DNA of 64,000 nt. Origin: Escherichia coli. GTDB lineage: Bacteria; Pseudomonadota; Gammaproteobacteria; Enterobacterales; Enterobacteriaceae. Below, piece by piece: positions 21,201 to 24,200 of this stretch. Numbering within the stretch: position 1 is the stretch's first letter; every line of letters starts with the position of its first letter. The stretch lies in the NCBI RefSeq assembly GCF_002854065.1, contig NZ_CP024147.1; one strand, given 5' to 3'. A program made the position numbers.

Positions 21201-24200
21201 GCACTGGCGCGAAACAGCACGCTACCGTCCTGTACCACTGTCCCGGCATGGACGCTATCGCCTTCGCCTTTTTGCTGCGGGATAGGTTCGCCCGTCAGCA
21301 TCGCTTCATCCAGCCATGCTTCGCCCTGGGTAATCTCGCCATCTACTGGCACGCGGTCGCCCGTCGTCAGGCGCAGTAGCATGCCTGGCTGAACTTCCGC
21401 CAGCGGCACGCTTTTTTCACCTTCGTCAGTAACCAGGCGCGCCGTCGGCGGAGTTAAATCGAGTAATTTCTCCAGCGCCTTTGAAGAACGCTGACGTGCG
21501 CGCGCTTCCAGCATATGACCGAGATTAATCAGACCGATAATCATCGCACTGGCTTCATAGTAAAGATGCCGCGCTTCCATCGGGAACCACTGCGGCCACA
21601 GGTTGACGCTCATCGAATAGAGCCACGCCACGCCAGTACCCAGCGCCACCAGCGTATCCATCGTCGCCGCACCGTTTAGCAGGCTTTTCCATGCACTGCG
21701 GTAAAAATGACCGCCGGCGAAAACCATTACCGCCAGGGTTATCAGGCCGATAACTAACCACAGGCTGCGGTTATCGGGGGTGACCATCATGTTATCGCCG
21801 ATCATCCCCCAGACCATTACCGGGATACCCACAGCCAGTGCAACAATTGCCTGCCAGCGGAAGCGCTTCATCGTAGCGACGGCGGTTTCTTGCTGGCGCT
21901 CGCGGCGTTTAGCGTCATCTTCAATCGCTTCCGCACCGTAGCCCGCTTTTTCCACCGCCTGCACTAAATCTTGTGGGGAGGCACTGCCCATCACCAGCGC
22001 AGTACGCTCCGCCAGGTTTACCCGTGCCTGAGTGACGCCCGGTACGCTTTGCAACGCATTTTGTACGCGGGTGACACAGCTGGCGCAGCTCATGCCGCTC
22101 AGCAGCAACTGCTGGCTGTCATCGTCATCGGCGGTCGCTGCCGGAAGCGCCTCAGAAACCGCTGTCAGTGCTTCCGACGGGATTGATGACTCCGCCAGCG
22201 GTTTAGCCTTTGGGTGGCTTACAGATGCGTCATAACCCGCTTGTTTGATGGTTTCGATCAGCTGTTCTGCACTGGCAGTCCCGGTAACGTGCGCTTCAGT
22301 GATAGACACATCCGCTTGTTCCACATCCGGGCGCTGTTCGAGACTTTCTTTCACGCGTTTAACGCAGTGACCGCAGGACAGGCCGTCCAGGGTCAGGTCG
22401 ATAGTTTGTGACATAAAACACTCCTTTAAGACAGTTTTGACTGGCTGTGATAAAGGTTAAACCTTCCAGCAAGGGGAAGGTCAAGAAATTAATAACCCAG
22501 GCGAGTAAAAGTCCGTAAAGATTAAAAAATCGGCTCGATTTGCATCAGGATTAGACATTTATCTCTTTGTTTTCCTGTAGTTAAGTTGCGGGTGCTAAGT
22601 TAAATCAGGATGCCTGAAAATCGGCACCGGGGTGAGGAATTACCTCCCGCATCTATAAAAAGGAGTTAACAAAAGATGTTAGATGCAAACAAATTACAGC
22701 AGGCAGTGGATCAGGCTCACACCCAATTTCACTCACTTAACGGCGGACAAAATGCCGATTACATTCCCTTTCTGGCGAATGTACCAGGTCAACTGGCGGC
22801 AGTGGCTATCGTGACCTGCGATGGCAACGTCTATAGTGCGGGTGACAGTGATTACCGCTTTGCACTGGAATCCATCTCGAAAGTCTGTACGTTAGCCCTT
22901 GCGTTAGAAGATGTCGGCCCGCAGGCGGTACAGGACAAAATTGGCGCTGACCCGACCGGATTGCCCTTTAACTCAGTTATCGCCTTAGAGTTGCATGGCG
23001 GCAAACCGCTTTCGCCACTGGTAAATGCTGGCGCTATTGCCACCACCAGCCTGATTAACGCTGAAAATGCCGAACAACGCTGGCAGCGAATTTTACATAT
23101 CCAACAGCAACTGGCTGGTGAGCTGGTAGCGCTCTCTGACGAAGTCAACCAGTCGGAACAAACAACCAACTTCCATAACCGGGCCATTGCCTGGCTGCTG
23201 TACTCCGCCGGATATCTCTATTGTGATGCAATGGAAGCCTGTGACGTGTACACCCGTCAGTGCTCCACGCTCATCAATACTGTTGAACTGGCAACGCTTG
23301 GCGCGACGCTGGCGGCAGGGGGGGTGAATCCGCTGACGCATGAACGCGTTCTTCAGGCCGACAACGTGCCGTATATTCTGGCCGAAATGATGATGGAAGG
23401 GCTGTATGGTCGCTCCGGTGACTGGGCGTATCGCGTTGGTTTACCGGGCAAAAGCGGTGTAGGTGGCGGTATTCTGGCGGTCGTCCCTGGCGTGATGGGA
23501 ATTGCCGCGTTCTCACCACCGCTGGACGAAGAAGGCAACAGTGTTCGCGGTCAAAAAATGGTGGCATCGGTCGCTAAGCAACTCGGCTATAACGTGTTTA
23601 AGGGCTGATCATGATGAACACGGAAGGTAATAACGGTAACAAACCTCTCGGTCTATGGAACGTCGTTTCCATCGGCATTGGGGCAATGGTGGGGGCGGGG
23701 ATCTTCGCGCTGCTGGGGCAGGCCGCGTTGCTAATGGAAGCCTCGACCTGGGTCGCCTTTGCTTTTGGCGGTATTGTGGCGATGTTTTCCGGTTATGCCT
23801 ATGCGCGCCTGGGGGCGAGCTATCCCAGCAATGGCGGTATTATCGACTTTTTTCGTCGCGGATTAGGCAACGGCGTCTTTTCGCTGGCGCTCTCGTTACT
23901 GTACCTGTTGACGCTGGCGGTGAGCATCGCCATGGTCGCCCGTGCTTTTGGCGCTTATGCCGTGCAGTTTTTGCATGAAGGCAGCCAGGAGGAGCACCTT
24001 ATTTTGCTCTACGCGTTGGGGATCATTGCGGTGATGACGCTTTTCAACTCCTTAAGCAACCATGCGGTAGGGCGGCTGGAAGTGATCCTCGTCGGCATTA
24101 AAATGATGATCCTGTTATTGCTGATTATTGCCGGTGTCTGGTCGCTGCAACCGGCGCATATTTCCGTCTCTGCGCCCCCCAGCTCCGGTGCGTTCTTCTC

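Follow-up and report, generated by a model that had tools for sequence, protein, structure and literature searches.

In E. coli K-12, copA reportedly contains a −1 programmed frameshift that produces CopA(Z), which Meydan et al. and Drees et al. are said to have described in 2017. The other chromosomal −1 frameshift of E. coli, that of dnaX (Rfam RF00382), is alike in that a heptamer and a downstream structure lead to a truncated product; the dnaX heptamer is A_AAA_AAG, and it is stimulated by a Shine-Dalgarno-like sequence upstream and by a stem-loop instead of a pseudoknot. Slippery sequence, pseudoknot and nascent chain have been presented as joint stimulators of copA frameshifting (PMC7558416, PMC6182138), and the copA pseudoknot has served as a model stimulator (PMC6182138). 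In addition, the frameshift has good support from ribosome profiling, with a drop in density past the −1 stop, and has been independently confirmed (PMC9548414, which also summarises the two 2017 studies).

The promoter of the same gene has also been described. Wild-type PcopA has a CueR core box, CCTTCC-N7-GGAAGG, a spacer of 19 bp and a distance of 2 bp from box to −10, CueR activates it through bending of the 19-bp spacer, and there is cryo-EM of the CueR-RNAP-PcopA complex (PMC8169799). Comparative genomics has given the CueR signal as ACCTTCCC-(5)-TGGAAGGT (PMC1526738). MerR acts likewise at Pmer, where a palindrome lies in a 19-20-bp spacer and activation proceeds via DNA distortion (PMC1526738). 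In mer and in most other Enterobacterales copA-cueR pairs the regulator gene diverges from the same operator, an arrangement also described for Salmonella (PMC1526738), whereas in Escherichia the genes glsA-ybaT separate copA from cueR.

Here we report the analysis of a stretch of E. coli DNA of 64 kb (the window), in which copA lies on the minus strand. Around the 5' end of copA, 581 bp match an O157:H7 genome at 100% identity and K-12 MG1655 at 99%, and strain CUWW06 differs from the window by only 10 SNPs across 33 kb. The order of the genes is ybaQ, copA, glsA, ybaT, a TolC-family gene, siiEA, a type I secretion (T1SS) ABC permease/ATPase gene, a gene for an HlyD-family adaptor, and cueR. 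The elements found at copA are almost certainly the canonical control and recoding elements already characterised in E. coli. Both are already known, and the K-12 reference already annotates the frameshift product. As they are textbook E. coli biology, the value of the finding as a discovery is small. Its practical value is one of annotation, given that PGAP has annotated only full-length copA, and not CopA(Z), in O157:H7 PV15-279 and in CUWW06, the two genomes other than K-12 that were looked at for this. It must be noted that anatomy, identity to K-12, conservation and covariation were computed, while the action of CueR and the frameshift product are taken from the literature. The copA gene and the parts of its promoter are the following.

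19910-22414, minus strand: copA, copper-exporting P-type ATPase of 834 aa (open reading frame; annotated as copA in matching genomes).
22462-22480, no strand assigned: CueR operator, perfect CCTTCC-N7-GGAAGG dyad, CCTTCCAGCAAGGGGAAGG, with 0 mismatches.
22479-22484, minus strand: −35 hexamer of PcopA, TTGACC, read from the sequence; its final two bases also open the dyad.
22454-22459, minus strand: −10 hexamer of PcopA, TAACCT, 19 bp past the −35 hexamer and 2 bp past the CueR box.

The encoded CopA scores 1745.6 bits on NCBIfam equivalog NF007952, whose cutoff is 1316. An earlier note on this DNA, which had been made from the sequence alone, placed a perfect CCTTCC-N7-GGAAGG dyad in the copA promoter; it is indeed there, and a pattern search found it to be unique within the window. 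About 0.004 perfect palindromes with 12 specified bases would be expected per 64 kb by an arithmetic estimate, while the relaxed matches to the dyad correspond to chance (26 in the window at no more than 3 mismatches versus 21.9 ± 4.6 expected). The operator also has the extended form ACCTTCCC-N5-TGGAAGGT, at 22461-22481. Read along the copA strand, promoter and operator run as cTTGACCTTCCCCTTGCTGGAAGGTTTAACCT, that is, TTGACC, a spacer of 19 bp in which the dyad lies, and TAACCT, so that dyad and layout agree with both the published core box and the comparative-genomics signal. A scan for consensus promoters with spacers of 16-18 bp found none in the copA-glsA intergenic region, because the 19-bp spacer of PcopA falls outside that range, as expected for a promoter of the MerR type.

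The window and K-12 PcopA are identical from the −35 hexamer up to and including the start codon; the two promoter regions differ only by a pair of substitutions that lie upstream of the −35 hexamer, at alignment columns 177 and 185. For comparison with more distant relatives, 80 Enterobacterales copA loci were fetched together with the first 300 aa of CopA, and 79 of them were usable. TTGACC, 19 bp and TAnnnT, plus the dyad, were found upstream of copA in 78 of these 79 loci, the dyad being perfect in 54 and having one or two mismatches in 24; TTGACC itself is present in 77 of the 79 promoters. On a weight matrix built from 30 copA operators, all of them from outside Escherichia, the operator in the window scores 36.4 bits and the next best locus in the scan 9.1 bits.

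Box, spacer layout, copper-efflux target and the presence of a cognate CueR gene are thus all those of a CueR-type promoter. Binding of CueR and Cu(I)-dependent activation have been demonstrated on the sequence that is identical in K-12 (PMC8169799, PMC5329002), and from this identity we infer that both would take place at PcopA of the window as in K-12. In the proposed mechanism a CueR dimer would bind the inverted repeat within the over-long 19-bp spacer that separates the −35 hexamer from the −10 hexamer. CueR charged with Cu(I) would bend and under-twist this spacer, so that both hexamers could be read by the sigma-70 RNA polymerase, while CueR without copper would keep the promoter off.

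The second element lies within copA, at the end of MBD1, where the earlier note had located a CCCAAAG heptamer at codons 67-69 and a product of about 70 aa. Its parts are listed below.

22208-22214, minus strand: slippery heptamer, C_CCA_AAG, made up of the third base of codon 67 and all of codons 68-69.
22203-22205, minus strand: TAA stop of the −1 frame, one codon (GGC) past the slip.
22203-22414, minus strand: coding span of CopA(Z), 70 aa, consisting of copA codons 1-69, then Gly and the stop in the −1 frame.

The register was confirmed: the heptamer begins at offset 200 in copA (200 mod 3 = 2) and reads C|CCA|AAG over His67-Pro68-Lys69, and it is the only in-frame X_XXY_YYZ heptamer containing A/T in the gene. 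The computed −1 product, MSQ...SVSHPKG, has exactly 70 aa and carries the sequence GLSCGHC. It matches models of CopZ-family metallochaperones with E = 1.3e-16 and 4e-10, which is below the full-protein cutoffs of those models. Its K-12 counterpart is YP_009518752.1, named 'soluble Cu(+) chaperone', which RefSeq gives as a second copA CDS made of two joined pieces, with an end equivalent to position 22203. When compared with the published CopA(Z) site, the element was found to be identical to that of K-12 over a stretch that starts 80 nt before the heptamer and ends 110 nt past it, both pseudoknot stems included, while MBD1 upstream of the slip site has 6 substitutions with respect to K-12 (alignment columns 341-366).

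By count alone the heptamer is not exceptional, with 4 occurrences of CCCAAAG in the window versus 8.6 expected; its significance comes from register and context. A different origin of the short protein must be considered at this point, namely that the MBD1 protein comes from a truncated transcript or from proteolysis of CopA, or does not exist, the heptamer being a by-product of coding for His-Pro-Lys. The lack of enrichment is in its favour, as is a second study, Drees et al. 2017, which, going by its title in the reference lists of PMC7558416 and PMC10187127, reported a contribution of differential transcript formation next to that of frameshifting. Against it, no site resembling an intrinsic terminator was found on the copA sense strand between 21800 and 22420. 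The ribosome profiling that the earlier note had proposed as a check is already published for this identical sequence, and in E. coli copA the density falls past the −1 stop (PMC9548414).

Conservation among the Enterobacterales loci bears on the same question. Loss of the heptamer from the reading frame, which the earlier note had named as a possible refutation, was not what the comparison gave: C_CCA_AAR is in frame in 77 of the 79 loci (R is G in 50 and A in 27), and in all 77 a −1 stop lies exactly one codon past the slip (TGA in 46, TAA in 31). The proline codon is CCA in every one of the 77, while CCA makes up 17.6% of the proline codons in these genes. The stop is kept through 19 different codon pairs of the zero frame (GCT AAA, ACT GAG, CCT GAT and TTT GAA, among others), and the background rate of stops in the −1 register is 4.7%. 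The 77 loci are phylogenetically related and hence do not amount to 77 independent events. Nevertheless, unless the −1 frame is under selection, it is difficult to account for the variety of codon pairs that preserve the stop, and this fixed codon and preserved stop argue against a mere by-product of protein coding. In copA of Yersinia or Serratia there is also a candidate site after MBD2, which may give a two-domain product of about 140 aa.

Synonymous sites agree with this. In a sample of 56 two-domain copA genes, codon homozygosity at conserved residues reached 0.865 over codons 67-93 versus 0.51-0.54 in the flanks, a value attained by 3 of 186 contiguous runs; the conservation is thus highest over exactly the region of the slippery site, which also speaks against a heptamer owed to coding alone. 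Within E. coli, the segment with slippery site and pseudoknot is at least 99% identical in 5404 genomes versus 5366 for a control segment of copA, and since this one control segment is equally conserved, bands of identity within the species do not single out the element. The comparative data confirm independently, and from sequence only, that selection acts on the frameshift cassette throughout the Enterobacterales.

Downstream of the heptamer, an alignment of 75 sequences contains four conserved blocks arranged in H-type order, which form the two stems of a predicted pseudoknot.

22194-22201, minus strand: stem 1, 5' arm, CCGCUGGC, alignment columns 14-21, 6 nt past the heptamer.
22170-22178, minus strand: stem 2, 5' arm, GUCGGAAGC, alignment columns 61-69.
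22159-22166, minus strand: stem 1, 3' arm, GACAGCGG, alignment columns 73-80.
22140-22148, minus strand: stem 2, 3' arm, GCUUCCGGC, alignment columns 91-99.

In this predicted pseudoknot 89.6% of the cells are paired, and 9 of the 17 pairs have changes on both sides. Stem 1 shows a compensatory change from CG to UA in 7 sequences, and in Pantoea CCGCUG/CAGCGG has become CCGUUG/CAACGG. Changes on both sides affect 6 of the 9 pairs of stem 2, at positions that switch among GC, CG, UA and AU. On four of five measures none of 500 shuffles reached the observed pairing values; on the remaining measure 2 of the 500 did. Slid controls were 17-51% paired, a contrast that is somewhat inflated, as the stems were defined from the same sequences on which they were tested. 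In stem 1, the predicted pair at columns 20/74 is mismatched in E. coli (G.A) and unpaired in 61 of the 75 sequences. The nested minimum-free-energy fold of the single sequence, over 72 nt past the heptamer, was not exceptional (z = −1.23); nested folds cannot represent pseudoknots. A search of Rfam with positions 21900-22700 at E ≤ 1 returned no family. The copA element has no Rfam model, whereas that of dnaX, which lies in the same window at 4055-4119, has one; the alignment of 75 sequences together with the pseudoknot would suffice to build it.

The covariation of the stems is a further argument against a heptamer that only codes for His-Pro-Lys. A source of the short MBD1 protein other than frameshifting is largely refuted by these data, and we regard it as exceedingly improbable. 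In the window, heptamer register at the end of MBD1, −1 stop, spacing of the pseudoknot and CopZ-like domain were all found as in a frameshift site, and the frameshift that produces CopA(Z) would work in this strain as it does in K-12, to judge from the identity of the two elements. Some ribosomes would slip by −1 at C_CCA_AAG, aided by the H-type pseudoknot 6 nt downstream and, following published work, with a role of the CopA nascent chain. The slipped ribosomes would read GGC and TAA and release the soluble first metal-binding domain of 70 aa, the chaperone CopA(Z), while those that do not slip would make the full pump of 834 aa.

The position of cueR differs between the window and K-12, as the regulator gene lies 27 kb from copA where the T1SS island is retained and 2.6 kb from it in K-12. 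In the window the island, as well as glsA-ybaT, lies between them. The genes concerned are five, all co-oriented.

25241-26596: TolC-family gene.
26698-46281: siiEA, 6527 aa.
46285-48447: T1SS ABC permease/ATPase gene.
48444-49619: gene of the HlyD-family adaptor (T1SS gene).
49616-50023, plus strand: cueR, Cu(I)-responsive MerR-family regulator, predicted to bind the dyad (from its sequence and the CUWW06 annotation).

The product of cueR scores 308 bits on NCBIfam equivalog NF007590, for which the cutoff is 244, and the literature on siiEA consisted of a mention in a strain survey. The earlier note had spoken of a coupling of cueR to the T1SS operon by which copper regulation might be wired to the adhesin island. 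The physical part of this statement holds, as the ATG of cueR (49616) and the TGA that closes the HlyD-family gene (at 49619) share bases in an ATGA; the copper wiring failed the check that the note itself had suggested. Such wiring would mean either that CueR controls the operon of the TolC-family, siiEA, ABC and HlyD-family genes, or that the operon meaningfully sets the level of CueR. In its favour, cueR is the fifth gene of the cluster on the same strand, with its start overlapping the preceding stop, and 959 of the 5426 complete E. coli genomes (about 18%) have this layout of island and cueR. On the plus strand between the HlyD-family gene and cueR no terminator-like site was found. Just upstream of cueR no consensus promoter was found either, and a search for a cueR promoter over the final kb of the HlyD-family gene and over the K-12 intergenic region gave no consensus match. 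Given the ATGA overlap, the lack of a separating terminator and the absence of a promoter match, the T1SS genes and cueR may plausibly be co-transcribed.

Control of the island by CueR found no such support. The additional CueR-like dyads proposed upstream of the T1SS operon, at 24.9-25.3 kb, were absent at up to 3 mismatches, and the weight matrix gave at best −2.1 bits in front of the T1SS operon and −4.8 bits in front of cueR, compared with 36.4 at copA. Additional CueR sites within the island were rejected, as pattern searches at 2 and at 3 mismatches and the weight matrix were all empty. Also against the wiring, an AGGAGG of its own lies upstream of cueR, and in other genera 56 loci have cueR divergent beside copA, about 100 nt upstream of it, with no T1SS. 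Both junctions of the island are present in about 959 of the 5426 complete genomes, and the rest match only from 49520 onward; the island has been lost in about 82% of the genomes, cueR being retained up to the same junction. Since the island is lost in most genomes and cueR is free of a T1SS elsewhere, the adjacency of cueR and the T1SS genes looks accidental, a result of past insertion and deletion, and a wiring of copper to the adhesin island is very improbable.

The K-12 genome keeps a trace of this history. Its spacer of 124 bp between ybaT and cueR consists of 28 nt after ybaT and a remnant of about 98 nt of the 3' end of the HlyD-family gene, with a deletion of 1 nt. As this remnant is kept, K-12 is, on the sequence comparison, a deletion derivative that has lost 24.6 kb, corresponding to about 24932-49519 of the window.

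The only non-trivial residue of the finding is a possible read-through into cueR from the T1SS genes. According to this proposal, which we consider unlikely, cueR would be a promoterless, translationally coupled terminal gene of the T1SS cluster in strains with the island (about 18%), and would be joined to glsA-ybaT in strains of the K-12 type, with a different dosage of CueR. If this were true, the deletion of the K-12 type would join cueR again to glsA-ybaT, a unit induced by copper and acid, and the set-point of copA and CopA(Z) would differ systematically between the two types of genome by way of CueR dosage. In this regard, an earlier prediction for K-12 has a ybaS-ybaT-cueR operon that ends with cueR (PMC1526738). 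The K-12 deletion takes out the 3' arm of a terminator-like hairpin that follows ybaT in the window (24915-24937), a loss that fits the predicted operon.

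The intergenic region between ybaT and cueR in K-12 (positions 6370-6493 of L001, the K-12 locus used for comparison) is a deletion scar, and the deleted part corresponds to approximately 24932-49519 of the window. This spacer consists of 28 nt past ybaT, followed by a frameshifted remnant of about 98 nt from the 3' end of the HlyD-family T1SS gene. Among complete E. coli genomes, about 82% have the K-12-type junction and about 18% retain the 24.6-kb island. The following features of the window are relevant here:

24915-24937, plus strand, terminator-like hairpin of 9 pairs followed by CTTTGTCTTT, directly 3' of ybaT
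25241-26596, plus strand, TolC-family gene, intact
26698-46281, plus strand, siiEA adhesin gene (6527 aa), intact
50735-51751, minus strand, gene for a YadA-family autotransporter adhesin, downstream of cueR

The 3' arm of the hairpin has been lost in K-12 through the deletion, and this loss could allow transcription of ybaT to proceed into cueR in K-12-type strains.

In contrast to the intact copies of the window, the TolC-family gene and siiEA of O157:H7 PV15-279 are both annotated as pseudogenes (frameshifted and with an internal stop, respectively); despite this, the copA 5' regions of the two strains are 100% identical. With respect to E. coli CUWW06, the window differed by only 10 SNPs over 33 kb, and one SNP, at 51352, introduces a premature stop (Q134*) into the YadA-family gene of the window.

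In most other Enterobacterales (56 loci within L005-L082 of the fetched copA set), cueR is divergent from copA and located about 100-600 nt upstream, and the two genes have in common the intergenic region in which the operator lies. glsA was found in place of cueR upstream of copA only in the Escherichia loci (L004 and L036).

As regards the frameshift site, where CopA has three metal-binding domains at its N-terminus, the C_CCA_AAR heptamer, the -1 stop and the pseudoknot blocks all follow the second domain (copA codons 131-138), which predicts a two-domain frameshift product of about 140 aa. This layout (L041, L043, L049, L053, L057, L059, L060, L062, L065-L069, L071, L075-L077 and L081) was present in Serratia, Yersinia, Dickeya, Pectobacterium, Brenneria, Xenorhabdus, Budvicia, Edwardsiella and Hafnia. 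The in-frame heptamer was missing from only two loci. In L064 (Moellerella wisconsensis), the two domains are joined by a long linker and a slippery site is absent, and in L061 (Morganella psychrotolerans) the copA reading frame is lost past approximately codon 24, owing either to an assembly indel or to a real frameshift.

The window also contains a second element of this type, within dnaX (2791-4722):

4055-4119, plus strand, DnaX ribosomal frameshifting element (Rfam RF00382, 96.8 bits)

The window therefore contains dnaX as well as copA, the two chromosomal genes of E. coli in which -1 frameshifting is well characterised. Further Rfam matches at gathering level were the sroB sRNA, two REP-derived naRNA4 elements, ES036 and AgrB, with coordinates listed jointly as 18340-18423, 19721-19798, 61050-61173 and 61675-61763.
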